Source: Stramenopiles sp. TOSAG23-6
Taxonomy: Eukaryota
Length of the DNA: 32,329 nucleotides
Direction: 5' to 3'
Assembly (NCBI GenBank): GCA_900128565.1
Contig: LT635959.1
Span: 1 to 32,329, forward strand
Below are positions 3,412-30,870 of the stretch, one piece after another. The translations under genes and the position numbers were made by a program. The notes beneath the pieces are model-generated. The model ran no database searches. It worked only from the letters and a program-made list of their open reading frames with translations, and was not told the origin of the DNA. Position 1 is the first letter of the stretch. The number at the start of each line of letters is the position of its first letter.

Positions 3412-3602
3412 GCTAAAAATGGGGGAAATGTGAATTAGTGCGGCAATATTTGATATAGTACACCAAAGAAGATAAAAAACATAACAATTCTCGCGCGTAA
3501 TTTTTCTTTTAAAAAATCGCGCGAAAAGGCAAAACACGAAAAAACGGTTTACTTACCTCTTAAGCGATCTGAGCGACCGTTATATTGTTATATTTACTTT
3601 GC

Positions 3603-3616
3603 AAACCCTAACCCTA
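3603..3616. promoter_or_regulatory. Telomere-like repeat/telo-box AAACCCTAACCCTA in divergent promoter
   Basis: Two CCCTA(A) units between head-to-head genes; the regulatory role is inferred. Confidence 0.55.
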
Positions 3617-3798
3617 GTTACTACTAGTAGCGCTATTAAAAAAAAAAAAAGGCAGAAAAAAAGGCAGAAAAAAGAAATTTCCTCGGCGACTTGACCTTGA
3701 CTTTGGACTTCCGTTACACAAACAAAATTAATTTTACAGTAAAAGCTTCTTTATTTGATTTGTGTCTTCTACTGATTGTGTCTACTGGAAAACATAAA

Positions 3799-6193
3799 AT
3801 GATGATTGGTGGGGTGAACTTAAGCGCTGTAATAAAGTCAAATGACAATGAAGAATCATTTCTTCTTGTGGACGAAGGAAAATGTGGAGATATCACAACT
3901 TCACCTGAGCAAAAGAAAAATGTTCCAAACTTTTGTACATGTACTACAAAAAAGACCGAGTCTTTATCTTTCCAAAATCAACACGAAATGGACAACTTGA
4001 TGAGTGAGTCCGAGATGGACTTGTTTTCTACATTTGAAATTATGCTTGAGCAGTTTTCCTTTGGTGTTGGGGGTAATCTGACTGACGACTGCGAACAGTT
4101 GGAAGAGTCTGCCGCAAACTTTGACGACAAAATGATGGAGTATACAACTGGAACTGACGGTGAAGTTCACATGGTATTCAAATTGACTGAAGATATGTTG
4201 GAATATCTTCAAGGCCATGATGAGTCTTCTTGGGAGTATGTCTACTCGGAAGCACAAAAAAACAAAGACTCCTCTGAAAGTCAGCCAGTTGATGCTGACA
4301 GTGTAATTAAGGATGAATTTTTAAGAATCTCTCGTGAACAAACACCTGATATGTACGAGAGAAAATACCATCCCTTGCGTTTTTCAATCTTAAATTCATT
4401 ATACCTCGTTTCAATGTGGTTCATTCTCCTTGTCTCAACTATTGCAATGGATAACATCGTTGGCCAAAAGCTCTTTCAACCATGGGCATATACGAGTACA
4501 TTTAACCGTGAACTAATTGAATACAGATTTATGAGCAAGAGAAATTCATTCAATATGAACAAGAGAAATTCATTCAATATGAACAAGAGAAACTCATTGA
4601 ATACTCGTGAATTCGAAAACCTTGCACATGCAAAATATGAAAATGTATTCTATATGTCAACTTGGGCCAAAAAGAAATTAAAGCAACATCCAAAAAAACA
4701 TAATTCAAATGAAAACAAAAAAGATATTTTGAATCCTCCGGAGGTACTTTTTAATTATTACTTTCAATTTTTTTTTTCACAGTAAATTTCATACCTAACG
4801 AGTTTCAAATGTGATATATTTTTTCAGAATACATGTCAAATCGGCTTTGGTATGGCCCTCTTTGAGTGAATTAAATGCATATAATTTACCTCGTGGAAAC
4901 TATAATGAGTCAGTATTACCTATGCATAATCAAAATTTCAACAAAACAAACGATGACTTCTATGGGCCAATTGGAAGTAGAAATAAAAAAGACACATCTA
5001 AATTCATCCCCGTAAGTACGTACTCTGGTGCGAAGAACGAAACACTTAAGGAGAAAGTTTCTCCAGTTGGACCTGTACCAGCTAGTAATAAAGCTCAAAA
5101 GCATACTAAAACTGTCTGGTTTGCGATTGGTGAAAAAGGTGAATCTGTTCCCTCAGGAACGTACGAATACCGAAGTAATCATACACTCTTTCATAAAAGG
5201 AATAAATTCAAAATTAAAAAGGATGGTGCATCATCACTTGCTCTTGTATTAGCAAGTCCAATCGGTCAAAAATGGAAAGAATATGCACGTCAAGTTCGCT
5301 CCCAACTCTATGTTACAAGTGTACAAGTGTTAAAGGATGATGTTTTACTATCAAAATTATTCACTTTGTTCGCAAAAGAGCAATGGCAACGTAAATCTGA
5401 TAAAGATCAGCGCGATGCAATGGCAATGCAACTGGTGATAAGGACTAAAAGCACCGGGTCTCCTCAGTTTATGTCTGATTATGTACAGAATTTTTTAAAA
5501 CATCAGCATATTAATGAATTTTGTTCAAGACAACGCTTATCTGACAAAACAAAAAAGTGTTCATTTGAAGGAAACAAATCACTTGTACCTGTGTATGAGT
5601 TTGCTGTAGTTTCGCCAAAAATGCCAAGCGCATATTGGACTTACTCAACATACCCAACGCCTAAGGTGGACTCTTCATTCTTCTGCAATGAAAAAAAGTG
5701 TCCGTGGTGGGCAGCCATGTTACAGAATGACTCAAGCGAACGTAGCGCAAGTCTGTCTCATGTTGATTCGAAAGCTATGCAGTTGGTTTCAATGTCTAGT
5801 GCACTCACTAAGCTTGAAAATGATATAAGCCATCCTGACACGTGGGGGGAAGAGTTCAATTTTGATAATTTCAATTATGAGAATGCTGAAGAAAATGTCG
5901 CATCATTTGAAGATGCATTGAAATATGTTGAAGCAACACTTTCAGAAGAAGAATCTTGGTTAGTTGAACACCAAAGGCAACTATGGATTGAATTTGCAAA
6001 GACAGAAGTAGCACGTCAAGAATTGTTGTTGCAAAAAAACCTTGTTTATATTGCACGAGCATTCATGAAGGATCTCGAAGACAGAGCAGAAGTGCCAGCA
6101 GCAGCAGCAGCCCGGGCAGCAGCCGCAGCAGCAGCACCGGCAGCAGCAGCAGAAACAGCGGCGGCAGCAGCAGCAGCAGCAGCATCAAACTGA
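3799..6193 (+). CDS. Hypothetical protein, 2 exons (3799-4743, 4835-6193), ~767 aa, with one hydrophobic segment and a poly-Ala tail
   Basis: ORFs 3691-4785 and 4811-6193 join in frame (PPE|VKSALVWP) on removal of intron 4744-4834. Contains a 24-nt x3 repeat (MxKRNSxN) at 4531-4602 and a GCA tract at ~6097-6184. Confidence 0.6.
4744..4834 (+). other. Family intron 1, 91 nt, GT...AT
   Basis: GAG|GTACTTT...TACCTAAC...TATTTTTTCAGAATACAT|GTC. The CAG ending at 4827 gives a frameshift and stop. Confidence 0.75.
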
Positions 6194-6376
6194 TGTGAAT
6201 TTGGCCGTATAATTTACGTTTCTGTGAAACATATTTTGTGGTTCACAAAGAGGATGTGTACTATAAAGTAAAATAAAACAATTCGTAAAAGATTCCCTTT
6301 ATTAAATTTCAATGTACTGGCTACATATTTCATCATACTCCGAATACTCATAGCCAATCCTTGCTCAATGAAAGCA

Positions 6377-9300
6377 TTATTCATTAGATAACATACTACT
6401 AATATAATGCTTCCATTGTATATTCACGTATTTATATGTATAGCGAAGCTTGACATTTATCGTATTATAAACATTACGAATATAGAACTTACATATCATA
6501 TTTATTTTTTCCGCTGTCACTATAATTTTATAGTCATGGAGAAGCTTGTTATGTATTTTCTTATAAATATTATATGTATAGTAGGCATATAACATTTTTA
6601 CTCTATGAAGAGGCCACCTTTGCTTACATCTCGTAAGAAAAGACTGATACTTATCTAAATAATACTCTAAATCATTCATCCCCTGATAAATTATCTCTAA
6701 AAAAAAATCCAATAATTTAGTTTCGTTACACTGCATCTCCTGCTTCATTTTGGATCTGATGACAAGGTCTCTAGTAAAGTCAACAATTTCTTCTGCTGTG
6801 TGGTTTTGGGGAAAGGGTTCGAAACCTTTGAAATCTTCGAAATCTTCTAAATAGTACGCTTTGTGTAATATTTGAGGGGTAAATCTTAAATTTGTCGCAT
6901 CTTCCATAATTGCATTTCGAACTATTTCATCTCGTTGGATATCTGAAAGGCTACTAGCAAAACTTTTAATGCCTTCTTCATTCATATTGTGTATATCAAT
7001 ACCAAATTTGACGTCTATAGGAGAAACATTCGTCTCCTCTGAAATTTCTTTTAGTCGTATTTCTAGAAGCCTATCGCGATTCTTCTTATATACTCGCTGG
7101 TGATACTTTTCAGAAAATCCGGATAACTTTCTTTGGATTCGGTTAACTGATTTCAAATGTTTTCTGACATTTTCTGACTGAACATAGATAGAGGAAGAGA
7201 ACATCGTTTGAACAAGTTTAGAATCCGCTTTATCAAGAAGATTGTAACTTTTGACAATACCTTGTCTAGAATTTTCGTCTGAAGAATATATCGCATTGCA
7301 TGCTGTAAAGTCATTGATGTGTGACGTCGTGTTTCCTATTTGTGTTGAAGTCATTTGCTTTTGTTTGCATGATTTCTCACTAAATGAAGAATTGCCAGGA
7401 ATATTTGACAGCATATGATAACGTAACATATCTTCTGCCGTCACAACATTGCCTAATGTCGTTGTGTTGAATTTGGATTCTTTATACACAACATTATTAC
7501 TTTGCTTACTTATATCTATATAACAAACAAATACATTTCTTCGTATTGAAAGTTTCACAAAGCGTTCAAAGTTAAGCAATAGCGCAACTCTATTAATCTT
7601 TTTGTGAACTATATCCGATATTCTCTTTGACTCAGGAGTGCTGTTGTCAATAATTCCAATAAGAGCAAATTTTCCTGAACTAATATAGGTCATATTATTC
7701 GATCGCAGCGGAGGTACATCAAGTATTCTATGTCTTCTTCTCATCCGCCTGTTATCGCATGTACCCGCTAAAGAAATTGAATTTACAGCAACCTCATTTG
7801 AAAGCTCTGAATGAAAGTAAGCGTATATGCTCGAAATGTTTCCTTTAGTGTATACCCAATGATCCTCATCTAGTGGAAGTGTATAATTTTGTCCAATTTG
7901 AAGAGTAATTGGTTCATTGTAATGTTCTAATCTAATATCAATTGCACCTGAGATTAATTGAATAAAGACTTGTGAAACTTCAGTTCCATTCAAATAATTT
8001 CGTAATACTTTCCCAGGAAGGTCAGCAACAAAAGTTGCATCTAGATCTTCTGTTTTTGCATTTTCATTCACCCGTTCAAAGAAATTTCGATTATCATCAT
8101 ATTTAAATAGTTCAGGCATGAGCCATTCATTAAATCTCCATGGTGACCAAGTCAAATTTGTCGCTCCAAAATCAAAATCTGGATTAACAATTCGCTGATT
8201 CTGGTTATCATTCAAAGATCCCCAAAAGTCAAAATAAAGACTAAATCCTTCGCCATATTCTGAAGCATACTCACGCTTAATACATTGGCTAAAAGTGAAT
8301 ATCATATCCGGACTGAATTTCCATCTGTTTCTCTTTTTTTTGTGCCAGCCTAGCTTTTCGTAATAATCTTCCTTAAGTAAAATAATGGAATCTTCATTAA
8401 TACCTCTTATACCACCGGCAGGTACTATCTCTACACTCGTATATTGCTGAGTATTCCAATCAATCATCATGGTATAGCTATATCCATATAAACCTCGACC
8501 CCAGACATTATTATATCCTTTTGTGATAAAATGTGAATATGGCAAAAAACATTCGAATGTCACTAAAACCAATAAGCAAATCACAGTAAAATGATGCCAA
8601 CAATGAATCCTTTTCCTATCAATTTTCTCGCGCGATTCTTTAACATTTAACGTAGCAGGTAGTAAATATCTATCACGTTGATCATTGTAATAATAAATAC
8701 AACGTGAAGACATTTGGGAATTTGATAGTAAAGGCAGGGTATAATAAGACACATTACAAATATAATGCAATATATTTGAAGTGCGAGATAATACAAACCT
8801 AGGCCAACTCGGATTCCACCAAATACTTATTAATCCAATGCACACATGTGGAAATACACCAATTTCAAATAAGTTTACATTTACAGAATGAAAGAAAAAA
8901 CAAACCATACTGGCTACTACTCTGGTTTTTGGATGCATTAGCAAAAATCCTATACATAAATCGAAGCCAAGTCCGCCAGTATTGATAAATAATTTACGAA
9001 AATCTTCTTCAAATGTTAAATTAAAGTTATCTAAAATTGGCATTATGATGGGTTTCACATAAAACTGCATAAATGGAAGACGAGCAATCCATTTCAGTGA
9101 TTTGCCATTTACCCAATCGTTTGAAGAGGCTTTCTTTAAACCTGCTATAAAATAAAGAATGAAATTTATGATGCGTAAAAGCATTACGTTCCACGCTGGT
9201 ACATGGAAACCTTTATCCCAAAGAATTGCTTTAATTCGAATGGGATGAAAAATTTTACGAGATAGGAAAGAGTCAACCTTTTCACAACAGCGTTTTGTCA

Positions 9301-10808
9301 AGTTATTACGTTTTTCATTTTCAATTTTCCAAGTGCTCTTCTCCTTCTCTTCATCACTTGCTTTATATGTGATGAAACAGGAAAACAATACGCAATCGAA
9401 TGACCAACAGGCATGACACTCTAAAAATATCATCACAGTCTTAAGTGTTGCAAATAAATACGAGTGATTATTCCAGTGAGTTTTGTCTAACAAAAATAAA
9501 TACCAAGCACCAATAGCACAGATAAAACAAGAAAATTTGTAGAAAAATCCTAAAATAATTCCAATATGAGCAAAAGTAAGTACAGCTCTGAACAAAACGA
9601 AACCATCCCAATTTAAAGGAGTTATCCATGAAAAATAACTAAAATGACACTTGTCATTAGTCAACAAATACTGATTATAAAGACGTTCCATGATGAAATC
9701 AAACATCATTACAATACCGAAGAAAATTCTCCAAATTGCGAGAGACGAGCCATCTATGGGTGCACAAAGTTGTGCAACAATGTTATTCCAAATACTCAAT
9801 TTTACGTTTTTATCATTTGTATCATTTGTATCAATACTCAATTTTACGTTTATATCATTTGTATCATTTGTATCATTTCCATTATCTGCAATTTTATAGG
9901 TATCTTTATCTGTACTTATATCCATTGACATTTCAAAAAATCTTTGTTTATCACGACGTTCTCGTCTTTTCTCATCTCTCTGACGTTTATGTATTGTAAA
10001 AAAATATTTTTTTTCATAAAAAAAATCGTTAGGTACGAAATTTCATACCAAAAAAAAAAAAACATGATGAAGAAAAACGTACATCTACCATTTCATTAAG
10101 TGTTGCTTTTAAATAAGCAATTTTACGTTCGTATGTCATAACTATTTGATCTTCCCGTACGATTGAAGCTGAATCTATTGTCAATTGACTTATATCATAA
10201 TCCATGTTCTTTTTTTGATCATTTTGTAGAGTATTCAACGATTTAGAATGATTTCCACTGTCTTGTATAGAATGTTTCATATTTATGTCATTCGTTATGG
10301 TTAGGTTTTCATCTTCAGGAAGTGTATTTTCTGGAAGGGTGTACATTAATCCGACCTCAAGTGCAACAGTTGGATCTATCGTTTCATTTTCATGAATGCC
10401 TTTAAGTTTTATCAATTCTTCTTTCAATTTTTGATGTTTGATCTTTTTTTCTTTTATTCGTTCCATTTTTAAATTTTCCTCTCTCAATTTTCCCTCTTTT
10501 ATATGTTCAAGTTTCAATTTTTCTTCTTTTTCAATTGTTGTATCTTGTTTTATTGGTTTTATTTGACTCGAACAGATATTATTACAACACAATCGATTCA
10601 ATTCTGCATTCAGATTTCCTTGAAACAATTCAGTTTCATCCTCAATTGTTGGTGAGTTTGCACTTCGTCTAGATCCAAATTTAAATCCTAGACGCATTCG
10701 AGCAACGAATTCTATGGGAGAGGATGGTTTGTATGTTTTCTTTTTCATAATATTAGCTTTGTCCTCCTGGGCATTTATACGTAAATTTTGCTTCTCTTTC
10801 TTTGGCAT
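6377..10808 (-). CDS. GGCX: Vitamin K-dependent gamma-glutamyl carboxylase-like protein, 2 exons (10808-10083, 9988-6377), ~1445 aa
   Basis: HTTM/VKG-carboxylase motifs DGSSLAIWRIFFG, FLLDKTHWNNHSYL, YFIAGLKK, LPYSHFITKGYNN, GLYGYS, SLN..QRIVNP and FVADLPG. The upstream 259-aa ORF joins in frame through intron 9989-10082 (EMVD|KRQRDEKRR...FFEMSMD). Confidence 0.85.
9989..10082 (-). other. Family intron 2, 94 nt, GT...AT
   Basis: GAT|GTACGTTT...TTTCGTACCTAAC...AAATATTTTT...ACAATACAT|AAA. An in-frame CAG 9 nt downstream is an alternative acceptor. Confidence 0.75.
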
Positions 10809-11002
10809 TTTTTTCTTAATATATCAATATCTCTGTGCTATTTTCAATTATATTAAAATTATAGTTTAGCTATACTAACTATGTCGTGCGTAGTCGATTG
10901 TAGATACCTTGTTAAGATATACGTAAGATACGTTACTCTCGCTACACTACAGGTTTCGTTTCTGTGCAACTTGCATCAGATCACATAATCTCCGACTATA
11001 GC

Positions 11003-11022
11003 TAGGGTTAGGGTTAGGGTTT
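11003..11022. promoter_or_regulatory. Telomere-like repeat/telo-box TAGGGTTAGGGTTAGGGTTT in divergent promoter
   Basis: About three TTAGGG units between head-to-head GGCX and WDR34. Confidence 0.6.
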
Positions 11023-11145
11023 TTTTAACGTAAGTACGTAACGGTTAAAATAAAATTCACACTTCCAAAGCTTCAAACAAAAAAAAATCCAGAGACCAAG
11101 GTAAAGCCAAGGTAAAATGTCTATTTGATATACTCACTCTGAATA

Positions 11146-13044
11146 ATGAAGAAAATTAATACCGATGATTCACTTTTTCAGGATTTTACTTCTTCTGAAA
11201 ATATTAGTATTATAAGTACTTGGAAAGCACAACGGACAGTTGAAAATGTCGCGACGCAAACAAAATACATTGAAACAGAATCCGAAGGCACACAAACTAG
11301 AATTCCTGTATCAAAAGGTTCACAAACAGTGCGAAAACAATTGGAAGATATTGAAAAAGGTTTGCTTCTTGGTGCATCACGCCTAGAAAAAGAATCGCGA
11401 GCTATTTCAAGCTTCTTGAGCCGTGTTACACCACAAATGTCAAAGCAACTGAGACAGAATGTAGATAGCCATGCCTTTGACGGTTTCTATGATTTTTCAG
11501 GGACTCTAGGTAACGCCACGAGTTCCACGTTGGATATTAAACATGCACTTATATATGAATGGGCCGAATGTGCACCGTCGTTTAAAACACATGTTGCAAA
11601 GGCAATAGCTAATGGTGAAGATAGACCAGTTGGTTTAGAATGCACAGGTCTGTCCTGGAATTCGAATGGTGCTGTGGTCTGTGCAACGTTTGGACGTACA
11701 GACCATAATGGCTGGTGTTGCCATGCACTTAATAGTAAACCAGCATTATGTGTTTGGAATATATTTAGTCGTGATTTAAAATGTGGTGCTCCTCAATTAG
11801 TATACGAAACAAGTTCATGCCTCACTTGTATTTCGTGTCATCCTACTAATCCAGCAATAGTGGCAGTAGGAACTTTTAACGGTGAAGTTTTGGTCTTTAA
11901 CATTGGAAAAGATGATGCACTTGAAGCATCGTCTCAAATAGACGATTATTTTCATCGTGAACCTGTATCATCAATTGAATGGATATCATCATCTCCTGGA
12001 GAACCATTGCAAATAGCAAGTATAAGTGGAGATGGAAAAGTGTTATTTTGGGAGCGAAAGAGTAAGCTTAAATATCCATCCGGTGGTTTTCTATTGTTAC
12101 CACAAAAAGGCCATCAAAGAGGGGAAGATAATAGAGATCGATTGTATAGCAGTAATCGACGGGGCAAGGATGAAAGAAATTTAGGTGGTATTTCGTTATC
12201 GTTTTCCCAGGTAGGTTCCTTATCCTCGTCATTTGTCACTGGTACAGAGGCGGGAGGAATGTTCAAATCATTTTTACGTACGGGTATTTCACGTAAAATT
12301 AGTCAACCGAAATATAAAGGTTGGTCGCGCAATGCATCGAGAGTTCTTGATTCAACTCCAAAAAATACAAAGGTGAAACTTCAACGTCATGTGGAAGAAT
12401 TTGTAAAAACAAATAGAAGGAATATATCTGAGATTACTGCAGATTTAATATATCTTTCAAAACCGCCACCTCATCTAATTTTTCCTGGTTGCACTGGATT
12501 TGCATTTGATCGGCACATTGGTCCTGTTTATTCATTGGCTTGTTCTCCATTTAGTAGGAACATTTTTCTATCTGGTGGTGCCGATGGCCATGTTAGATTA
12601 AATTCTATGCTTAATGTTAAAGCAATATCAACATTAGAAGTTTCATCAACTTATGTTTATAGTGTTGCCTGGTCCGCGTTTAGACCACTGTTATTTGCTA
12701 CAGGTACTGAAGATGGATCTATTTTCTTGTATGATCTTTTTGCAAATCAACATTGTCCTATAGAAACTTTAATTCCATCTGAGTTTTCTACTGTTCCAGG
12801 ATATGGCCGTGTTTGTATTACTGATAGTAACGGCAGAAGTAATGAAGTTGGAGCAGCTGTAAATTGTATTTGTTTTAATCCGAGGCAGAGGGATTTCCTC
12901 GCTGCTGGTGATGCGAGTGGCGCTATTTGGATATGGAAATTACCATGGCATCTTTCTAATGAACAGCAAGGTGAATTATCTGAACTAGAATTTATAGGTA
13001 TGGATAACAATAACCAACACGATACAGATTCAAAATTTAATTAG
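11146..13044 (+). CDS. DYNC2I2: Cytoplasmic dynein-2 intermediate chain 2 (WDR34), WD40 protein of retrograde intraflagellar transport
   Basis: N-terminal TQT light-chain-binding motifs, FLSRV...L..N..SHAFDGF, FGRTDHNGWC, H.GPVYSLACSPFSRNIFLSGGADG and YVYSVAWSAFRPLLFA. Confidence 0.88.
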   Translation: MKKINTDDSLFQDFTSSENISIISTWKAQRTVENVATQTKYIETESEGTQTRIPVSKGSQTVRKQLEDIEKGLLLGASRLEKESRAISSFLSRVTPQMSKQLRQNVDSHAFDGFYDFSGTLGNATSSTLDIKHALIYEWAECAPSFKTHVAKAIANGEDRPVGLECTGLSWNSNGAVVCATFGRTDHNGWCCHALNSKPALCVWNIFSRDLKCGAPQLVYETSSCLTCISCHPTNPAIVAVGTFNGEVLVFNIGKDDALEASSQIDDYFHREPVSSIEWISSSPGEPLQIASISGDGKVLFWERKSKLKYPSGGFLLLPQKGHQRGEDNRDRLYSSNRRGKDERNLGGISLSFSQVGSLSSSFVTGTEAGGMFKSFLRTGISRKISQPKYKGWSRNASRVLDSTPKNTKVKLQRHVEEFVKTNRRNISEITADLIYLSKPPPHLIFPGCTGFAFDRHIGPVYSLACSPFSRNIFLSGGADGHVRLNSMLNVKAISTLEVSSTYVYSVAWSAFRPLLFATGTEDGSIFLYDLFANQHCPIETLIPSEFSTVPGYGRVCITDSNGRSNEVGAAVNCICFNPRQRDFLAAGDASGAIWIWKLPWHLSNEQQGELSELEFIGMDNNNQHDTDSKFN

Positions 13045-13091
13045 AAAATAATAAATAATTCAACTGAGTGAAATCGAATGTAGTATAATTA

Positions 13092-16000
13092 TTACTTGGC
13101 ATGCACAGCAGCATCTTTCACTTCAACGTAAGCCCGAACTGGATACAATGGCATTCTTCTTTGAAATATTTCCAGACCATCGGCATTAATGTTTTGTGAC
13201 TTTTCTGAGACGGACCTTTTCTCATTAGGATTTCTTACCAGCGTTGATTTAACTTCATTTCCAGTCGATACACAACAAAATACAGAACGTTCACTTCCAT
13301 CTTCAGCAATATAGGCATCAAAAAATTCAAGAAGCCGAGCAGGGGTATGTATTGCGAAAAAATATCTTTTTTTTGGTTTAAAAAATTTGTTAGGTACATT
13401 TTTTTATGGTTTTATGTTTTTTTGTTTTGAAATTCATTATGAAAACGTACAATATTCAACACAGCTGCGGCATCGCGTTCTTTTTCATTAAATAGAAACG
13501 TTCTACCTGAAATCTGTTGCCACATTTTTGAAGATTCTTCATTTAATGTTTTCGGTGTTTCTGAGAGCTGAGCAGCCAACGATTTTTTGTGCAAGTTGAA
13601 TGAATTAAATGCATTTTTCAAATGGTTTGGGTTATTTTTATCAATATCACCAGTATCTTGTTTTGCACCACCGTTCATTTCAACAAGAAGTTTACGGAAA
13701 TCTTTCAAAAATAGGAGAATACGATCCTCTAAATATTCTCCAGTAGCCTTATCACTTTGTATAATAATTTGACAACCTAGTACACCCCACTCCGTTGCCA
13801 TTCCTGACCATACGAGATAGCCTAATTGTTCTTTTGTCCGTAGTTGATCATAACAGGGTTCATTCATAATATTCATGAGTAACTGTAACACTGCTGACCT
13901 TTCACCACCATCAGGAAATATTCCATCTGATTCTGAATCATTACTATTTGATATATTTGAAGGATTAATACTTTCTACAGGACAATCCATTCCACACTGA
14001 AAAACATACCGAATTGCATTACAAACCTGTTCAGGATTAGATTCTTTATGTTCAAAATAGTATACAGTTTTGGTATCTAATCGAACAGAACGTGGTGCAG
14101 GTTGTTGTGATGCAAAAAGACGCGAACATTTCAACAACTCAGGAACCAAAATAGCGCATTGTTTTGCATCTGACGTAAGACAATTGCCATGTATTAAAGT
14201 TTCACAAAATATTCGATGAAGTAAACGAGGTATAAATGCATTGACTTGTTCATGTGTAATATCATCAATTACAGCAAGTTTATCTCTATAATGCCATTGT
14301 GGATTTAATAGAGCATGACGTGTACAATACATTGCATGTTGATACGGTGCTTCCATCTCAAAATCTTCATATCCGCGTTTCAATTTATTCTTCAGACTTA
14401 TAAATCTCGGAATGTTTCCTTTTTTTTCTGATATTTCAAAAGACTTCATTTTCTCTACAATTTTCTTCAAGAGAATGGACATTTTACTATTATACCCACT
14501 CAAAACTAATTCTAAACCAGACCAACTTTCAGATAGCGCATAATTCAAACCAGCTAATTCAGCAAAATAGCTAAACTCTGTAAGTTCATCGGTAATCATA
14601 CGTTGATATAATGATACCATTACTGAAGCTTCAGGAGATTCATATGCAACAGGTGTTAACAATCGACAACAAAATGCCATTTTTGGAACTTCAAAATAAC
14701 CATCTTGTTTATACCATAATCGAATATAGTCTGTGTCGAGAATGACACGTGGCGGCTCGGTACACGTTTTTTTAATACCATTAGGTAGCGGATACAGTGC
14801 TAAATCTTCGGGTAAAAATGGATTAATTTTCGGCATAAAAACTTCAGATATAAATTCGTCACCAATTTCCCAATTTGTTTTGACTGTACTAGCAACAGAG
14901 TTGATACTATGTTCAGTTCCATACCATTTTTCTTTCATTAAAGAAATATTGGGGTTATCTGATGTATTTAATGTATTATTATCACAAACACCTAATTTTG
15001 AAACTACAAATACAAAACTATTCTCTGGTTTTAAATAATTTAAAAAGTTTTGAATTAAAGAAGAATCAAATTCACGAAATAAACTTCGACCAGTTAAAAC
15101 AAATTCCGCTGGATATTTCTGTAAATGACCCGCAATAGTAGTACAATTTGACATTGGCTTTCTTTTGGATTGAAATTTTAAACTAATTTCGTTTAATAAC
15201 TTACATTCTTCCCAGACTGATTCATCCGGTCCATGGGTTCGAAGCATCTTCAAATATGAAAATATTACAGAGCACACACCATTCACATTTTGAAGGCCTT
15301 CTTCAGTGACTTCCACGGTAACTTCAAACATAGAAAAGCATGACTGTGAACTACTTGTACCAGCACTTAGTTCATTGGCCCAACCTTTCGACTTTAAAAT
15401 AGACAAAATTGACCCTGCGCTCTCATGGCCGATCAAGTGAGACAGATATCGCATGTATTGTAGAAAAATATTTCAAAAAAAAAACCTTAAATTTGTTATG
15501 TACAAAATTTCGTACGAAAAAAAATTCGAATTTGAAAAAAAGTAAAACATACATGGGTTTCGTCTTCCAGTGTTTCTCAACAGGAGGACAAACAAACGTT
15601 AAACGAACATAACGAAGATCTTTTACTGGGATAATATTTACCTTTTTACAAAAACAATCCGTATAAGGATTTAACTCGAATGACGGTGCAGAAATTTCAG
15701 AATTTTTAATTTTTCCAAATTTTTCTCTTATCCACTTTTCTTGAACATCCAAAGTCTCACGACCGATGACGCATAGTTTCATTAAATTTGCCGAATAATG
15801 TTTGGCATGAAAATTAAGTAATGCTGAACGAACGTCAACTCCTTCTTTTTCTGGAATAGTTTTTAGTGTTTCCAAATTTCCAGTTCCGAATTTGTGCACT
15901 GGATGGTCTGGACGAGCTAAACTTTTACTCAACTGATAGAGGCGCCAATGATCAGACTGTAAATTTTTAGAATTTTCACTATCAACAGCTTTTAGTTCAC

Positions 16001-16427
16001 GCCCTGTAGCAGACGCGGTGAATAATGGTGCAATAAAGAACTGAGCAAAGCGATCAAGTGTACTTTCAAGGTGTTCATGATTCACGTGAAAGTGAAAGTT
16101 TGTACTCTCTGCTCCAGTAAATGCATTACTCATACCACCGTTACTTGAGAGATGAGCAGAGTAGCTATTTTCATCGGGGTATTTCTTTGTTCCTAAGAAA
16201 AGCATATGTTCAGTAAAATGAGCCAAACCGGGTAAATTATCAGGGTCGCTATAGTGACCAACCTTTACATCTAACGCTGCAGCTGCCTTGTCCGTCTGCT
16301 CATCTTGGATTAGCAAACAAGTGAGTTTATTCTCTAAAACAACAACTTTATAGTTACATTTATCATTGGCCGACTTCTCCACACCATTAGATAAGCGCAC
16401 TGCATCCATTGATCCATGTACCGGCAT
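13092..16427 (-). CDS. IDE: Insulin-degrading enzyme (insulysin, peptidase M16A), 3 exons (16427-15553, 15452-13451, 13346-13092), ~1043 aa
   Basis: GLAHFTEHMLFLGTKKYPDEN (HxxEH), YLSHLIGHE and YDQLRTKEQLGYLV. A last exon without its own ORF call encodes TPARLLEFFDAYI...FQRRMPLYP and ends in TAA at 13092-13094. Confidence 0.93.
13347..13450 (-). other. Family intron 3, 104 nt, GT...AT
   Basis: ATT|GTACGTTT...TGTACCTAAC...ATATTTTTTCGCAATACAT|ACC. Gives VLNI|TPARLLEFF. The nearest AGs (19 nt up, 46 nt down) are out of frame. Confidence 0.88.
15453..15552 (-). other. Family intron 4, 100 nt, GT...AT
   Basis: CAT|GTATGTTT...TTTCGTACGAAATTTTGTACATAAC...GAAATATTTTTCTACAATACAT|GCG. Gives WKTKPMRYLSHLIGHE. 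Confidence 0.9.
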
Positions 16428-16528
16428 TTCCCCCTTTCAATTGGTGATTCTTCGAATGTTGCGCTTTAGAAGACAAGTTTTTTTTTTCTCGACGCCGCTT
16501 CGATATTTATTTGGAATTTTTCGGTTTT

Positions 16529-16554
16529 GGTTAGGTTAGCTTAGGGTTAGGGTT
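16529..16554. promoter_or_regulatory. Telomere-like repeat GGTTAGGTTAGCTTAGGGTTAGGGTT in divergent promoter
   Basis: Two perfect and two degenerate TTAGGG units between head-to-head genes. Confidence 0.55.
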
Positions 16555-16737
16555 GACGTTAATTTTTAATAATATTAACGTACCGTTGTGGGTTGCAGAC
16601 CTCCTCGGTATACACAAGGTAGGCCCTTATCAACGTACAATCTTTTGACAAGATACACCCTCTTGACGCAACACTAGTGAGCCAGGTCCCGATTCTAGTC
16701 GAAATCGTAGAAGGTGCGTCCTCCAACATTACACACG

Positions 16738-17519
16738 ATGAGACGACTCGTGATCCTTTCACTATGCACTATATATATATCCTCAACAAACTCCGCAACA
16801 CGCATACGTTGGGCTGATGAAACTGGTGCTCACCTCATATCACGTTATACAGTATATAGAAAAGGAAGTGAATATGATGACTTCCTGCTTGACTCGGAAC
16901 TGCCTACATACAATTATCCAGAAGCTGTACTTCCCCTACCGCAATACCTTCACCCAGAAGCTCTACACTTCCTACTAGAACATTCACGAGCCTTATCCTC
17001 TACTTGGGTGCTCCAAAATAATTTGCTTTTAGAGAAGTCTAACGAAAAAAAACCGTCGAAAACATAAAGGAGCTCATAAAAAAAGTATACGAAGTCCTCG
17101 AAACCTTTAGCAGTTTAGATGCCGATTTTGCACATGTAGACCCAGAATCTCTCCAAGCGTTCGTCAAAACTACAGCCAGAGAATTTTCCAGAGAAATATT
17201 GCAACTATCTAGATTTATAGAGAAACAGATAGATGAACAGCCCAGCAATTCTGATGAAGCAGAACTCTCTGAAATACACATTTTCTCCAAAGAAGTTGAA
17301 CAGCTGCTAGAAAATACAAGTCACTACTTCCGCACTATCGTTCCAGAATTAATACGCCAACGAAACACGAATCGAACGAAAAGAAGACCACTAGAAAGAC
17401 CACTAGATGATAGAGTGGACAAGGCGGAACTAAAGAGACTGCCTCTTCGACCATTTGAAGAAAATCGTCTTGAAGGAACTAATGGTTATGGCGGAGGTGG
17501 TTATGGTGGGTCAAAATAA
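16738..17519 (+). CDS. Hypothetical secreted protein (~260 aa) split by a 1-nt frameshift at an A8 run (17045-17052)
   Basis: Signal-peptide-like start MRRLVILSLCTIYISSTNS. The -1 frame is open from 17043 to 17519; one extra A gives a continuous NEKKTVENIKELIKK...GGGGYGGSK. Confidence 0.5.
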
Positions 17520-19154: not shown

Positions 19155-22100
19155 TCAATTTTTCTTTCCATTTGCAATACTAATCAGTTTTTTGGCTCTA
19201 GTTTGTCCCAAATCCAAAAGAAGGGATAAGAATTCTCCTCTCTTTTTCAAGGTATTAATATTTTCATTTTCATCATATGAAGCTACTAATTCTTTTGGTG
19301 TACCAAATTCTGATACTATCCCATCATCCATTACAATAATTCGGTCACAATCAATAATTGTTGAGAGTCGATGAGCGATAAAAATACAAGTACAGCTGGC
19401 GAATTCTTCACGAATCGTGTTTTGAACTAGTATATCTGTATCATAGTCAACACTTGCTGTTGCTTCATCTAACATTAGAATTTTACAATTCTTTAATAAA
19501 GCTCTTCCCAAACACAATAATTGTCTCTGTCCTACACTGAAATTAGATCCACTTTCTGTTACAACTGATGATAAACCACCTTCTCTCGCTTCAATAACAT
19601 CTTTTAACTGACATCTACCGAGAGCATCCCATATTGTTTCATCTGAACATGTTTCAAATGGATCCAAGTTTGAACGAACAGTGCCGTAAAATAATACTGG
19701 ATCTTGTGGAATTATTGCAAGTCTTGAACGAAGTGTGTGCAATCCAAGTTTTGAGATATCTCGTCCATCAATTTTAATGCAACCACCTGCATGTTCAACT
19801 AAACGATAAAGTGCTACAAGTAGAGAAGACTTACCAGCCCCAGTTCTGCCACAGACGCCAATTTTTTCACCGCCATTAATTGCTACAGAGACACCACGAA
19901 GAGCAAGAGGGAGACCAGGTCTATAACGAAGTTGTACATCCTGAAATTCAATAAGTCCCTTTGAAGGCCATACAACGGATTGGGTAGCTAGAGTTTGCTC
20001 ACCAACATTATTATTATGAACCACCATCACAGTTTCATTCTCCTTTACTATACTTGGCGGATCACATGGTAAATGTCGTGGAGCCTCACTTTCAAAATTA
20101 CTATACGGATTCGATGTACTTGCTCCCATATACTCCATAAGTCTTTCTACTGCATTTAAATGAGTCTCCGTTTCAGCAACTTGCCTAACACCCCAACTCA
20201 AAGTCCCCATTACTTGAGTTATATACACTAAAGCTAAACCAACCATTGGTGCATTTTTCTTCGCATTTTCGTTTTCGCCGAAATGTAAGGTTGCGACAAC
20301 TGCAGTTGCAAATATTAAACTACTTCCAAGAAATTCAAGTCGTATACCTAACCATCTATTTGCTGAATTTCCATGAAAAAACGCTCGATGATGAGTGTCA
20401 AGAAGCGCACAATTACGTGTTGCTAAATGTACTTTGGAAAAATATTTCAAAAAAAAAATTCAAAATTTGTTAGGTACAAAATTTCGTACGAAAAAAAGTT
20501 CGAAATTGAAAATAAATAAAACATACATAATCTCCAATACAAAAGGAACGAATTGAAGGTAAACCTGAAAGAGTTTCACTTAAATTTGAAAAGATTGGAG
20601 CTGAAGCAAGAGATCCTATACGCTTTAATTCACGTGAAGTTTGTCTATAAAACTGTAAAATTAAATAATACATAATTAATAATGGTACTAAGGGAATTGC
20701 CATATAATATCCATTAATATAACAAACCAAAGCTAATGTGCCAATAACCTCAAATATACATCGTATCATGGTGCTCATCGCTTCCCGTAATTGATTATCA
20801 GCCAGATCTACATCTTCTGAACATCGACTTAATATTCGCCCGGATGGAGTTGTCTCAAAAAACGTTAAAGGAGATAAAAGTAATGAAGTTAAAAATTCAT
20901 TATGAAGATTTGTTGCTGCTCGAAGACCACCAATACTAAAAAATAATTGACATAGGAAATATGCAACCAAAGCACCGAATGTCCAAAGAGCATAAAATCC
21001 TAGCCACCAGTAGTGAGAATGCTCTGGATTAACTTCCGCTGCATCTTCAGTCCAAAATGCCAACCAAAGATTTGTAAAAATTTGAATTGCTTGCTGTAGA
21101 CTAAACATAAACGATAGACATATGATGACAAAAATTGCTGTTGAATTTCCTTCGATTCGCTTATTACTTTTAGGATTTCTCGCAAACATCTTAAAATACA
21201 TTAATATTACTGCCATTTGAACGCTACCTTTTTGTCTAGCATCTTTCTCAGTTAAATGACCAGCTAATCCTTTCCCTTGAAACTGTTTTTTATCTAACTT
21301 TGTTTTATCTTCATTAACTTCACTCTCACTCACTTTGTCTTTTTCTATTTTCAATGTAATCTCATTTGTTGTTTTATTTATAATATCATTTTCATTTATC
21401 TTTTCTTCATCAACTCCATGTGATGCCATATGTTCCAAAAAGTTTTGTGATGATTCTTTTAAATTTGCAAATGAACCATCATCAACAATACAACCATCTT
21501 TTAAGACAAGCACACGATCAACTCGAGGTAATAAATGAAGCTGATGCGTAGCCACGATCCGAGTTTTGCCAGTCATTTTAAATAAACCATCAAAAATTAA
21601 TCGACCAACGTGAGAATCAAGAGCACTGAAAACATCATCAAAAACAAAAATCTCACTATCTGAATAGAACGCACGGGCAAGAGCTATTCTTTGTTTTTGA
21701 CCACCGGATAAATTGATTCCCTTTTCACCAATTTCAGTTGAATCGCCGGCAGGGAGTAATTCAAAATCATATTTCAACTGACTAAATTCAATTGCTCTAC
21801 TGTATAATTCTCTATCAAATGGTTCAGATCCGCGAGATAAGCATATATTTTCCCTCACAGTAGCATTTACAATCCACGCTGTTTGGGGTACATAAGCTGT
21901 TGTTCCACAAGTCTGTAGACTTCCTTCCGTGTATATCATTTCACCTAAAATACTTGATAGTAGACTTGATTTACCGCTACCCACAGAACCACACACTGCT
22001 ATTAATTGACCTTTTTCAATAGATAAATTAATATCATTTAGACTAAAACCAATTTCATCATCATATTTTGCTTCTTCAGGAGAAGATTGTTTCCCTTCTG

Positions 22101-23684
22101 TTTCATTCATTTTTGTTTTTTTATCCTTATCCTTAGTCTTCTTAGCCTTATCTGTTTCATTCATTTTTTTATCCTTATCCTTAGTCTTCTTCTTATCCTT
22201 ATCTTCTTGACGATACCAGACAAATTTTGCATTTTTGATTTCAATGACATGATTAGTATCATTTTCAAGTTTTAATACTTCTTTAACTTCTGGATGAATC
22301 ATAAATTTAGAAATTCGTACATTCGCAATTCTAAATGAAACAAAAGCATTAATGATAAAAGGTAAAACAATAATAGGAAACCGAACCAAACGGAAAATTG
22401 ACAGAGCAGTAAAAATTTTTGATGCAGTCATTTCATTTCCAGTCAACGAATATGTAGCAAAAACAGCGAGAGAGACAAACATGGGTGTTAAATTCCACAT
22501 TGTATAATTTATCATTTGTACTATAATATGAGTAAATAATGCGTCAATCTCCTTTGCTCTAGTTTTATGTATTTGATCACTAAATGAATCTTCCCAACTA
22601 TATAGTTTTACAACTTTAATTCCGGCTATTACATCAGTAATTAACTTTACTCGAGCATCGGTTTGCTCTACTACACGTTTTCTAAGTCTTTCTAAAATTT
22701 TGACTAGACGAGCTTTTAGTGGCATTACAAGAACCATGGATTATGAAAAATATTTCAAAAAAAAAACTAAAATTTGTTAGGTACAAAATTTCGTACGAAA
22801 AATAAAAATAAATTCGAAATTGAAATGAAAACGTACATAACTACAAGACCAACTAATGAGGGCCAACCTATATAATAATATAATTGAGAAAAGGCAACAA
22901 CTATCTGAAAAGGCGCACTCCATAAATTATGCATATATGGAGTAAACCTCATTATTCGACCTGCATCATTAGACACAAGGTTGACAACATTTCCAGCAGA
23001 AAATTTTAAATTTGGACTCAGTTTTAAAACTTTTCCAAAAACACCAACGATAACAAAAGCTCTTACTTGCATAGCAATCCGATATACACCATGAAAATAA
23101 ATATTGATGAAAACACTTTGAAGAAATCTTGCTAAAAATAAAGAGAGAGCCCAGATGTAACCTAGTCGTATTCCTGTGTCATAAAGTTCCTCAGTAGCAC
23201 CTTTCTCAAAAAATTGTATCATTAGAGAAATAAACACTGGAATGGAGTATTGTAGAATGTCGTGCAGTAATTTATAAAATCCAGCGCATGCAAAAGTACA
23301 ACTAAATTCACGACGAATAGCACGTATTAAAGAAGGTTTCTTTTTCTTTGTTGGCTCCGTCGTAGCATTTTCATTAGTAGGTGCTATGGCACTTGAATCA
23401 ATTGAATCTAGATTACAAAAATCTAACTCTTCTTTCCATCGCTTATCAAATGCAGTACTCCATATTCTAGACTTATCAGACTCGAGTATATCAGGAATAT
23501 CTTCCATTTCTAGTGTTTTTTTTCGAGCAAGAGAGATTAAATTCTGAATCCACCAAAAACTCAGACGCGAACAGAAGTTTGCTTTCCCTTCACCACAAGG
23601 AGCAACAAGAGGTACATTGGGAGAAGAAGACAAGGTTTCATCATGCTTTTGACTTTTTTTTGGAGCATCATTCAACTTTGTCAT
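19155..23684 (-). CDS. ABCC/MRP-family full-length ABC transporter, 3 exons (23684-22837, 22735-20527, 20426-19155), ~1442 aa
   Basis: TMD-NBD-TMD-NBD layout with [70 protein letters not shown] and MLDEATASVD. Confidence 0.93.
20427..20526 (-). other. Family intron 5, 100 nt, GT...AT
   Basis: TAT|GTATGTTT...TTTCGTACGAAATTTTGTACCTAAC...GAAATATTTTTCCAAAGTACAT|TTA. Gives IRSFCIGDY|LATRNCALLD. The AGs 5 nt up and 4 nt down are out of frame. Confidence 0.9.
22736..22836 (-). other. Family intron 6, 101 nt, GT...AT
   Basis: TAT|GTACGTTT...TTTCGTACGAAATTTTGTACCTAAC...GAAATATTTTTCATAATCCAT|GGT. Gives GWPSLVGLVVMVLVMPLKA. The AGs 31 nt up and 23 nt down are out of frame. Confidence 0.9.
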
Positions 23685-23889: not shown

Positions 23890-24977
23890 CTATAATTTAG
23901 ATTTTTCTCTCTGGGCTTTACTTGGTAATTCTGTCTGTTGTTGCCACATGACAACTTTTTCTCTTAAACTTTCTATAATTCGTTCTTGTTTTGATATTTT
24001 TTTTTGTTGCCTTTTTACCACATTTTGAAGTTCTTGAATTCTTTCCATCGCTTGTTCCTGGATTTTTGTAAAATATTTCAAAATTTTTGATTTTTTTTAT
24101 TAGGAATAATTAGGTACAAAATTTTCATAGTAAAAAAAAATGGAAATGAATGATATAAACATACATGAGTTAAATTGTCGATGACTTTCTCGCTTGTATT
24201 ACTACTATTCTGCCGTTTTTCTAACGCTCTTCGTCGTCTTCTCTCTTCTTTTCGTGCTTTTTTTGCAATTAACTCGGCATCAGTTTTTGTATTTTTTGTA
24301 TTTTTTGTATTTTTTGTATTTGTTGTATTTTTTTCATTGTTTTTGTTTTGTAAAGAACGAGTTAAAGACGTTGGAATACCACGCTCAGTTTCACCGTCTT
24401 CATAAATGACATCATATGCTCCTTCTTCTCTGATACTGGTAACTTTTGCTCGTCTCCATGTTTTCCCCCTATATCGGACTTCTATACTTTCATTAACTTC
24501 AAATGCATTTCTTATTTTCATTGCAGTAAATCCACTACCACCATCAACTGTGGCTGCCTCCATTCCTAAATCTGACATACCCCCAATAGACTTTGGCAGC
24601 CTTTGTTTTTTTGGTGTTAACAATTTTGTTTGAACCTCTGAGTGTTTGTTTTTTGGTTCACTAACCTCGTTTTTTATAGAAGTTTTTGTTCCTTTTTCAT
24701 TATTTTCCATTATAGTATTTTCACTTTTGTTTATGTCTTGCATACCATTATCACAACCAACATCTGTACTTGTACTTTTTACTTGAGTAATAGCACCACC
24801 TAAAACACGGATACGCTCTCGAGGTACTTCACTTTCCCCACCAAGTGCCGAGTGACTATATAACAAATCAAATGTACCTTCTTCTCGAATGCCCATTACC
24901 TTCGCTTCTACCCACTCTCCCATATTTTGATAATTTGCTAAAACGTCTTGTCCAAATGCTATAATTGGCTCTGACAT
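23890..24977 (-). CDS. Tandem Tudor/Agenet-like domain protein with C-terminal coiled coil, 2 exons (24977-24165, 24057-23890), ~326 aa
   Basis: Two Tudor-like units (GQDVLANYQNMGEWVEAKV..GTFDLLY and FEVNESIEVRYRGKTWRRAKV..YDVIYEDGETE). In-frame join NLTH|EQAMERIQ. Confidence 0.7.
24058..24164 (-). other. Family intron 7, 107 nt, GT...AG (canonical-ending member)
   Basis: CAT|GTATGTTT...TTTTGTACCTAAT...GAAATATTTTACAAAAATCCAG|GAA. Confidence 0.85.
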
Positions 24978-25469: not shown

Positions 25470-27659
<2,190 letters not shown>

Positions 27660-28065: not shown

Positions 28066-28135
28066 GAGATTCCATACCATTTTTTTATAAAATGTACCTA
28101 ATTTTCAATTTGTTTAAAAAATGGTATGGAATCTC
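28066..28135. repeat. Perfect 20-bp inverted repeat with 30-nt loop
   Basis: GAGATTCCATACCATTTTTT (28066-28085) and AAAAAATGGTATGGAATCTC (28116-28135). Confidence 0.9.
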
Positions 28136-28862: not shown

Positions 28863-30609
28863 TTATTTATTTATATCATTGAGGTCTCTCTTTACTGTCC
28901 CACATTTTTGAGGAGTTTGAGATTCTGAAGAATTCCTTACAGGCTTCATTGGACTATTTACTTTTTCAATATTATCGAGCATTTTGTCTAGAATGTTGTC
29001 TATACATTTATCATTAAATGCAGAATGTACACCAAGCTTCATCTTTTCTAACACCATCTGTCCTTTATTAGAATTATTCAAGTTTTGAGTATTTTTTACA
29101 TCACTCTTCATATTCTTTTCTTGCTTTGACACGATCTTTTTTACATCACTCTTCATATTCTTTTCTTGCTTTGACACGATCTTTGGCTTTGAACAATAAT
29201 ATATCTGATTTGTAGACAATTTTTTAATACTTGAATACATATCTGATTCCACAGAAACTCTAAATTGCATGTATAGGAAAAACAATATGATACACTTGAA
29301 ATTTGGTTAAAACAAATCGTAAAACAAAAAAAGATCTAAAATATATATCTTTGAAATTCATGATGAAAACGTACATACCAACAGTCATACCAGCAGGAAC
29401 TATAACCTGTACGGGGGTTTGTGTCCCAGGTTTCATGAATTCTAAAGTAGAGCCTGTTCCTGCAGTGGGGGGAACTTCTAAATCTAGTATCAATGGTGGT
29501 AAAGATTTTAATACAGCTTTTTTTCGTAGAAAACGCACAATAATTTTTTTGTCAGTCTCATTGGGTAAATTGCTTGATTCAGTCTTCGGTAGAGTACTCA
29601 ATTCAGTAGAAATTTCTTGTGCTGTCTTTGACGAAGCAGATACTCCGTTAATAGCCAAGACTGCATCCCCTACTTCTATTTTATAGCTATGCTGTTTTAT
29701 GTCACTGGAGCTACCTTTCTTACTTATGCTAAAACTACGTAGAGGAAATGCCACTGCATCAACATCCTGAATGGTTACTGCAGTCATTTTGAAATCTTTC
29801 ACCTTGTAAACTGTCTGATCCGTAAAAACAAAACCTTGCATATATTCATGACAAACGACTTGATTTTGAAAAACAACTTCATACACGTCAGATTTCACTT
29901 TACTTTTTGTTTTCTTTCGATGAACACGTTCCGCAGCTCTTTGGGCAGCTGCTAAACGTTTTTTCTCCTCCATTTCTTTTTTAGTGATGATTACGGTCTT
30001 ACTGGAAGAATTAACACTATTTGCTTCAGCTTCAACGCCAGCAAAAAGTCGGAGAGATTCATTTGCTGCGGTTTTTCGATGTTCTCGGACACCAAGGTCA
30101 CCTTTTGCTTCATCATTACCTTCAGGTGGTACGTTTTTTGATAAACGAATTTCTTTTACCGTAATTCCAGACGTTGTTGAGTTGTCCGGTAGCCATGATA
30201 CTGAAAATGTAAGCCCTTCTTCCATATCATTATCGACAGAAGACACTGTCGCAGGACACCACTCCCCCTCCCAAAGTGCTTCAACCAAAGTCCCAACTTT
30301 AAAAAGTATTTCAGGCTTTTCAGTTTCAAGAAAGTTAAGCAACCTTTTTTTTGAGCCACGCCTTACAGAATTCACCTTCGACTTTTTGAAGTTACCAACG
30401 TTTTTAGTGTTTTTTTCCCTTTTCTCATCACTGCTTAATTGACGTTGGCGCTTTTTATTTGAACGAGCTTTTGTTAAAAGCGCTCCTAAAGACTCCTCAT
30501 CTGAAGAGTCCGAATCGGAATCACTCGTATCAACTTTGCTCATTTCGAAATTATTCTGAATTGATTTTGAATCAAGAGATTTGCCTCGAACATCTGCAAG
30601 GTCTCCCAT
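28863..30609 (-). CDS. Protein with Tudor-like and PDZ-like domains, 2 exons (30609-29375, 29268-28863), ~546 aa
   Basis: FKVGTLVEALWEGEWCPATVSSV (Tudor-like) and IEVGDAVLAINGVS (PDZ-like). Join gives VIVPAGMTVGMQFRVSV. A 39-nt tandem duplication (KIVSKQEKNMKSDVK) lies near 29095-29180. Confidence 0.65.
29269..29374 (-). other. Family intron 9 (diverged), 106 nt, GT...AT
   Basis: TAT|GTACGTTTTCATCATGAATTTCAAA...TTTTAAC...TTTTTCCTATACAT|GCA. An in-frame TAG 9 nt downstream is an alternative acceptor. Confidence 0.75.
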
Positions 30610-30870
30610 TATTGAAAATACTCAGAGTAAAACAATAAAAAATTGGGAATTGGCGGTAATTACTCTCTTTTGACTGACATTTTACAAATATTTATTACGC
30701 GACAAACCTGTTTCTTTTCTTTTTTTTTCGCTCCTCTGGCTCTAGACACAGAGGGGGAATTCAAATTTCGTCTCAAATTTCAATTATATAATCATATTGT
30801 TCGTATCGATTGTTCTAGCCTAGAATTCACGCGACCCTTCACATAAAAGTAGTGTGTACATCAATATAGA

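Follow-up and report, generated by a model that had tools for sequence, protein, structure and literature searches.

The AG at the end of an intron is among the most constant signals of eukaryotic genes, and structures explain it by the contacts that A(-2) and G(-1) make with the donor G and with the branch adenosine. The introns considered here lie in a 32,329-nucleotide (nt) stretch of the genome of Stramenopiles sp. TOSAG23-6 (GenBank assembly GCA_900128565.1, contig LT635959.1, positions 1 to 32,329 of the forward strand; this whole stretch is referred to as the window), and the focal intron occupies positions 4744-4834. It would be a spliceosomal intron of an introner-like family in the genome of a MAST-3 stramenopile, with a yeast-like donor GUAYNU, a UACCUAAC-type branch site, a U-run and a terminal block ...UAUUUUUY N3 AAYACAU, and it would be cut after CAU instead of YAG. 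On the sequence evidence, the reading as a whole (an introner-like spliceosomal family cut after CAU, with the acceptor set by a 3' motif) is moderately favored.

The closest precedent is yeast without Prp18, in which acceptors other than YAG are used; CAU and UAU are the most efficient of the sites not ending in G, and a strong poly(U) tract is required for their use (Roy et al. 2023, PMC10711555). A pairing of U(-1) with G(+1), where C or A would clash, is proposed in that study. The features of these HAU-type sites (A followed by U at -2 and -1, a strong poly(U) ahead of the acceptor, and G at +1) are all present in nine of the ten introns of the window family, and the two systems are alike in the CAU acceptor, the GU donor, the upstream poly(U) and the nearby YAGs that are not preferred. 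In the yeast strain, however, HAU use is rare, yields mutant-dependent side products and falls mostly upstream of a real YAG (PMC10711555), whereas here CAU would be the normal productive acceptor in 9/10 introns of a wild organism, within a 19-nt block and 35-43 nt from the branch site.

Mammalian GT-AT introns include a U2-type case in DGCR2, conserved between human and mouse, and 7 of 66 non-canonical introns of the U12 type (Sheth et al. 2006, PMC1557818). They resemble the window introns in having GT...AT ends with otherwise normal signals, and they indicate that the chemistry is possible naturally; they are isolated cases in a total of hundreds of thousands of introns, whereas here such ends are the rule within a family. 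Unlike the U12-type GT-AT introns, the window introns lack the U12-type donor and branch spacing. U12-type introns tolerate non-AG ends, their acceptor being set by distance from the branch site, and are marked by the donor RTATCCTT and a branch motif TCCTTAAC about 10-15 nt from the end. A U12-type assignment was rejected, as RTATCCTT was found at 0/10 donors and 35-43 nt separate the branch motif from the end. The nonconventional introns of euglenids have no conserved borders, and their ends are joined by a stable helix; this type was also rejected, given the conserved borders, the branch motif and the lack of a consensus end helix in the window introns.

In the tunicate Fritillaria borealis, divergent U2AF paralogues recognize non-canonical introns (Soo et al. 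2026, PMC13326754), and this lineage, with non-AG 3' ends as the norm, provides a model for a dedicated factor. Both ends depart from the GT/AG rule in 95% of the introns of that species, whereas in the window the donor and branch site are canonical and the last base alone differs. The non-canonical introner elements of the dinoflagellate Amoebophrya carry inverted repeats of 8-20 nt and direct repeats of 3-5 nt and have no consistent terminal dinucleotides (Farhat et al. 2021, PMC7789003, in which the introner cases of Micromonas and Aureococcus are also cited). Shared with Amoebophrya are the marine protist host, the repeated introns, the direct repeats at the borders, the inverted repeats at the ends and a transposon-like character; unlike there, the inverted termini are 5 nt long, the repeat is 2 nt long, the ends are uniform (GT, CAT) and the branch motif is clear. 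Introners in general are described as transposon-derived intron families with canonical GT/GC...AG sites, and the survey concerned dropped families with unfamiliar splice sites unless they were RNA-supported (Gozashti et al. 2025, PMC12130899). The apparent likeness to introners consists of similar introns in unrelated genes (four are 81-90% identical) and a duplicated dinucleotide at the borders. None of the compared systems has, as its norm, a uniform GU...CAU class in which donor and branch site are canonical, and no description of this intron class was found in a literature search whose range excluded supplements, a possible site of MAST splice tables. The class is probably best filed as a variant of the spliceosomal intron carried by an introner-like family.

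All family counts were drawn from this one 32-kb window, which is gene-dense eukaryotic DNA (30-44% G+C) with long open reading frames (ORFs) on both strands and no Rfam families or transfer RNAs. Members were found by reading around GTACCTAAC sites and GTAYGT donors. Sites matching GTACCTAAC with at most one mismatch numbered 13 against 3.7 expected, and 0/100 shuffles reached 13. The result was ten look-alike segments, 91-107 nt long and all oriented in the sense direction of the genes that contain them. Additions to the initial annotation are 10082..9989, 27474-27564, 31552-31644 and 29374..29269, and the donor of 24164..24058 was now defined (minus-strand introns are written from their 5' end). 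The members are as follows, with a slash marking the exon-intron border.

4744-4834, plus strand: focal intron, 91 nt, GT...CAT, phase 0, between the ORF at 3640-4785 and the ORF at 4799-6193
9989-10082, minus strand: family intron, 94 nt, in a gamma-carboxylase-like gene, GT...CAT, phase 0, with an in-frame CAG 9 nt downstream
13347-13450, minus strand: family intron, 104 nt, in the insulinase gene, TT/GT...CAT, phase 0
15453-15552, minus strand: family intron, 100 nt, in the insulinase gene, AT/GT...CAT, phase 2
20427-20526, minus strand: family intron, 100 nt, in the ABCC transporter gene, phase 0
22736-22836, minus strand: family intron, 101 nt, in the ABCC transporter gene, phase 2, ending in TCCAT
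24058-24164, minus strand: family intron, 107 nt, phase 0, ending in a canonical CAG where the other members, once aligned, have CAT
27474-27564, plus strand: family intron, 91 nt, phase 1, close to the 3' end of the gene for ATP synthase beta
29269-29374, minus strand: family intron, 106 nt, AT/GT...CAT, phase 2, with a divergent branch motif TTTTAAC, joining the ORF at 29260-30621 to the ORF at 28863-29306
31552-31644, plus strand: family intron, 93 nt, AT/GTACAT...CAT, phase 0, with an in-frame CAG 3 nt downstream

The donor reads GTA[C/T]NT in all ten segments, in agreement with the extended U2-type donor consensus. A branch motif TAC[C/A]TAA[C/T] is present in nine and TTTTAAC in one, each followed by a T-run, after which all ten carry the 3' block [A/G]TATTTTTY N3 AAYACAT. 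The last three letters are CAT in 9/10 and CAG in 1/10, and the U2-type terminal AG is thus absent from nine. In an alignment of nine members with 10-nt flanks, conservation starts at AT/GT and stops directly after CA[T/G], and the exon flanks are unrelated. The G of the CAG-ending member stands in the same column as the T of the others, which identifies that column as the last intron base. Pairwise identity is 81-90% for four copies in three genes and 59-79% for the other pairs, against a mean of 0.59 and a maximum of 0.70 in shuffled controls; these identities indicate homologous copies of an introner-like family, more than introns that merely have strong signals. The most divergent members (13450, 29374 and 4744) keep the donor, branch motif and terminal block and differ in their middles.

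Excision from GT to CA[T/G] is in frame in 10/10 cases (chance expectation (1/3)^10 = 1.7e-5), with 233-500 open codons upstream and 22-500 downstream of the excised segments. Five junctions were checked in conserved proteins identified with Pfam: two in the insulinase, two in the ABCC transporter and one in ATP synthase beta. All five fit without insertions or deletions. At insulinase junction 15552..15453 (KP[M]RYLSH) no insertion or deletion was seen against 21/21 homologues, and at 13450..13347 an Ile codon stands directly before the GT, at a position where 19/21 homologues have I, L or V. For the ABCC junctions, each exon end was searched against solved structures; the last 5-8 residues per end were unaligned, and positions were extrapolated across them. 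The exon ends led to consecutive residues of the solved chains, with five chains per junction: exactly one residue, from the split codon, lies between the exons at 22836..22736 (9u57_A, 7m68_A, 8bjf_A, 5uj9_A and 9c12_A), and zero residues at 20526..20427 (8rq3_A, 8vt4_A, 7m68_A, 8bjf_A and 7vlu_A). The ATP synthase beta junction at 27474-27564 leaves 9 residues between SW and KWTG, equal to P0127 (89% identical), P0130 and P0132, and the split Phe codon (FD) is common to the window protein and P0130.

If the GT donor is kept, none of the AGs located between the branch site and 40 nt beyond the end fits any of these five junctions. Canonical AG acceptors were rejected there, since they are out of frame or would gain or lose 10-13 conserved residues. 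The initial annotation had proposed that the acceptor is not the first AG after the branch site and is mostly no AG, and the ten reading frames and five homologue junctions support that proposal. Ten matched runs of poly(A) seawater metatranscriptome covered at most 0.29 of the sampled words of 4300-14299. Same-species transcript-derived proteins were not found; the best ATP synthase beta match, at 89% identity, is from a relative. Taken from the sequence, the acceptors of the family are very probably non-AG.

Other features of the ATP synthase beta gene were also recorded. Its first intron, from 25520 to ~25773 on the plus strand, starts AT/GTAAGTAAAC and lacks the family branch motif; the obvious TAG is out of frame with the GTAAGTAAAC donor, and a weaker donor GTAAAC 4 nt on, or a non-AG end, would fit. 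The protein has a C-terminal extension of ~90 residues (27200-27659, plus strand), the last 31 of them from a separate exon, and the extension is common to the uncultured marine relatives P0127, P0128, P0130, P0132 and P0133. Single N bases occur at 3343, 26300 and 26319, two of them in the ATP synthase beta P-loop, which is thereby translated as GLXGGAGVXKT.

The focal intron has the following parts.

4744-4749, plus strand: donor GTACTT, preceded by exon AG (GAG/GTACTT), in one of the two family members without AT before GT
4792-4799, plus strand: branch-site-like motif TACCTAAC, with position 4798 as the presumed branch A and 36 nt from there to the intron end
4825-4827, plus strand: internal CAG after a T-run, the end of TTTTTTCAG, 29 nt from the branch A
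4816-4834, plus strand: conserved 19-nt 3' block ATATTTTTTCAGAATACAT, whose last letters AATACAT contain the proposed CAT acceptor ending at 4834

The two flanking ORFs (3640-4785 and 4799-6193) are on the same strand in different frames, 13 nt apart. Once 4744-4834 is excised, the two are joined in phase 0 and stay open for 368 codons before the junction and 452 after it, whereas with the CAG at 4827 as acceptor the frame shifts by -7 nt and meets a stop 13 codons later; the earlier claim that this textbook CAG leads into a stop while the CAT 7 nt on joins the ORFs is borne out by the reading frames. With the GT donor fixed, no in-frame AG was found for this intron up to 40 nt past its end. 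In the family alignment the focal CAG falls in a variable column, at which other members have CAT, CCA, CTA, CGC or TAC. Pfam families were found in neither focal ORF. A word-based search with exon 2 against proteins of 248-791 amino acids gave zero homologues at E<=1e-5, and a full HMMER search with the focal gene gave three weak matches, the best of which (P0247, E 1.6e-11) spans the C-terminal part only. The focal intron probably ends mainly at 4834. Exon 1 of the gene also contains a 24-nt tandem repeat in three copies (4530-4600, plus strand) that encodes M[S/N]KRNSFN.

Several points weigh against the proposed reading. In 7/10 introns, borders slid along the sequence give the same messenger RNA, and the sole junction that opposes a slide, 13450..13347, does so via one conserved residue. 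An in-frame CAG lies downstream of two introns, at +3 for 31552-31644 and at +9 for 10082..9989, so that their acceptor is ambiguous from the sequence. Two genes are possible at the focal locus, where the stop TAA of the first ORF is at 4783-4785 and the first ATG of the second lies ~137 nt on (~41 codons in). Neither the word-based nor the HMMER search found a homologue across the focal junction, and the use of 4834 is therefore argued from the frame and the family alignment alone. The fixed register of the 3' block could stem in part from common descent of young copies. Finally, a motif scan of metagenome contigs returned 29 loci, none with the family layout on inspection, and a stricter motif had 0 matches in genome contigs; with no extra copies in public contigs, every count comes from a single window.

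The exact borders were considered in light of the letters that flank them. AT precedes GT in 8/10 introns, compared with a dinucleotide frequency of 0.093 (P ~2e-7), and as a result the borders of seven introns can slide by 1-2 nt with the messenger RNA unchanged. An AT direct repeat is present at both borders in 7/10, and the inverted termini ATGTA/TACAT are 5 nt long, too short to tell from splice-signal constraint. The border AT repeat may be a target-site duplication left by a mobile element, or it may belong to the donor signal on the exon side. An A-C terminal pair is an established compensating pair, and the same segments might be removed by the major spliceosome with true borders 2 nt upstream, as AT...AC introns with A(+1) opposite C(-1). 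The excess of AT before GT fits this alternative, as does the slid intron reading AT...AC with identical messenger RNA in 6/10; U2-dependent AT-AC introns are mentioned in PMC1557818. The pattern holds in those six only, however: 4744 would start with AG and 13450 with TT, while 22836 and 24164 would end in CC. At 13450..13347 the slide would encode Asn, found in none of the homologues, instead of the I, L or V of 19/21. It would also shift GTAYGT from +1 to +6 to +3 to +8, and the G of the CAG member is aligned with the T of the others. The AT-AC intron class was rejected, since AT...AC ends need the 2-nt slide and then hold in 6/10, and removal with AT...AC borders is considered unlikely. 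Borders of the form GU...AU are fairly likely to be exact.

A second alternative is that the focal locus is ordinary, either because the CAG at 4827 is the main acceptor and gives a truncated or decayed isoform, or because two genes flank a family copy in untranslated or intergenic sequence at 4744-4834. In its favor, TTTTTTCAG makes a good canonical acceptor at 29 nt from the branch A, and neither ORF has a Pfam family or a homologue that spans both. On the other hand, a complete, sense-oriented family intron sits exactly between the ORFs and its excision restores the frame as in the other nine; the two ORFs are just 13 nt apart, and the CAG at 4827 is a variable column in the family alignment. 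An ordinary focal locus is improbable.

How the CAT would be chosen was approached through the AGs that are passed over. Unused AGs lie between the branch A and the end in 7/10 introns, and first-AG scanning is therefore no description of these sites. Measured from the branch A, the skipped AGs comprise a CAG at 29 nt, a TAG at 10 nt, AAGs at 10, 12, 17, 24 and 38 nt, and a GAG at 4 nt; in four introns AGs also occur 3-9 nt beyond the end. The initial annotation had named four introns with bypassed internal AGs, and each was recovered: 13450..13347 (AAG at 24 nt from the branch A), 15552..15453 (AAG at 10 nt), 20526..20427 (AAG 5 nt from the end) and 22836..22736 (TAG at 10 nt). In 20526..20427 a TAG also lies 4 nt past the end, and it and the AAG are both out of frame. 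AG acceptors are probably also used by the organism, as a canonical-looking intron was noted on the minus strand at 3413-3556 (144 nt, GTAAGTAAAC...TTTTTAG, GT-AG), a candidate that ends 1 nt before the ATG of a 1137-amino-acid ORF.

The distances given in the initial annotation were largely reproduced. The branch A lies 35-43 nt from the end in all ten introns (in 24164..24058 via the second CCTAAT, the first giving 52 nt), and the end, claimed to fall ~8-10 nt after the motif, was measured 9-10 nt past TATTTTTY. The distance from the start of the 3' block to the end is 19 nt in 8/10 and 18 and 20 nt in the other two, and the length of the T-run stretch between branch motif and block varies. 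A block-to-end distance that is fixed at 19 nt in 8/10, beside a branch-to-end distance of 35-43 nt, makes the terminal motif a better candidate for setting the acceptor than a ruler from the branch point. Of the three mechanisms put forward earlier, a motif that a dedicated factor would read fits best, the last ~19 nt forming a conserved block.

The other two mechanisms amount to a further alternative, in which the proposed borders are correct and the site is set by a branch-point ruler or by pairing of AUGUA at the donor with UACAU at the end. The confinement of the branch-to-end distances to 35-43 nt speaks for a ruler, but this 8-nt spread is wide beside the nearly constant block-to-end distance, and the ruler fits poorly. 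For pairing, ATGTA (in eight introns) and TACAT (in seven) are reverse complements in 6/10; yet 27474, 22836 and 24164 alter the 3' arm (AACAT, TCCAT and TCCAG) with no compensating 5' change. In RNAalifold, nine introns gave no consensus end helix and two 4-base-pair local stems only, with a total energy of -0.25 kcal/mol, so that end pairing found no support. A ruler or end pairing as the determinant is unlikely, and definition of the acceptor by the motif is modestly preferred. Non-spliceosomal removal, by DNA excision like that of ciliate internal eliminated sequences or by RNA cutting and ligation with an endonuclease and a ligase, would suit the AT repeats at both borders in 7/10 and the short inverted termini (cuts on paired ends would leave a 2-nt 3' overhang), but is highly improbable given spliceosomal signals (GTAYGT donor, TACCTAAC branch-type motif and U-run) kept in divergent copies, the sense orientation of every copy, one member ending in AG and, in the excerpted paper on the MAST-3 group (PMC5778133), no description of programmed DNA elimination.

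For the preferred reading, the following mechanism is proposed. The introns would be removed by the spliceosome, and the acceptor would be picked by the extended 3' motif through recognition by a factor or a small nuclear RNA, so that AGs between the branch site and the end, or just beyond the end, go unused. A(-2) would be retained, with U(-1) in place of G(-1) opposite the donor G(+1). The fidelity of the second step may be relaxed or altered in the lineage, through Prp18, Slu7 or Prp22 or through a U2AF-like protein. Whether CAU is the normal acceptor of most introns in the MAST-3 lineage, spread by an introner-like family and accompanied by altered fidelity factors, is judged an even question.

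A public gene model was compared with the insulinase gene (13092-16436, minus strand). The best insulinase match, EukProt GSMAST32.ASY1.ANO1.2100.1 (P0003), is identical to the window translation in every aligned block and was the only near-identical insulinase. Its model leaves out coding stretches as if they were introns, continues out of frame into 15552..15453, ends at a stop within 13450..13347 and loses the last exon; gene finding limited to GT-AG introns breaks such genes in this way. For the MAST-3 assemblies, few predicted genes (2694 and 3289) and apparent pseudogenes have been described, and unusual splicing is not mentioned in the excerpted text (PMC5778133). The low gene counts and pseudogenes of the group may in part be an annotation artifact.

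Several further features of the window were recorded. The gamma-carboxylase-like gene (6377-10823, minus strand) encodes a protein with an HTTM domain (E 1.2e-56) and a VKGC lumenal domain (E 8.6e-28); the vitamin K-dependent gamma-carboxylase family is known mainly from animals. Telomere-like GGGTTAGGGTT (two to three TTAGGG units) occurs at 3604-3614 (minus strand), 11005-11021 (plus strand) and 16544-16554 (plus strand), in each case intergenic and just upstream of genes, with four matches against 0.25 expected, and is possibly a promoter element. An inverted repeat of 28 nt (28066-28135, plus strand; 89% complementary, 14-nt spacer) encloses TACCTAAT in a region that has no clear gene model. 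At 16711-17519 (plus strand), two ORFs that overlap and differ in frame meet at a run of eight A (17045-17052), which could reflect a homopolymer error, a frameshift or an unrecognized intron.

If the proposed reading is true, a wild organism with CAU as its routine acceptor would offer a natural experiment on the terminal contact and its proofreading, and the first natural organism with the state of yeast lacking Prp18 as its rule. The second catalytic step would then rest on the G(+1)-U(-1) contact together with an altered Prp18, Slu7 or Prp22 or a U2AF-like reader. The window may also add a case of an intron family that spreads with a non-standard splice site, and the poor public gene models of the MAST-3 group would be explained.

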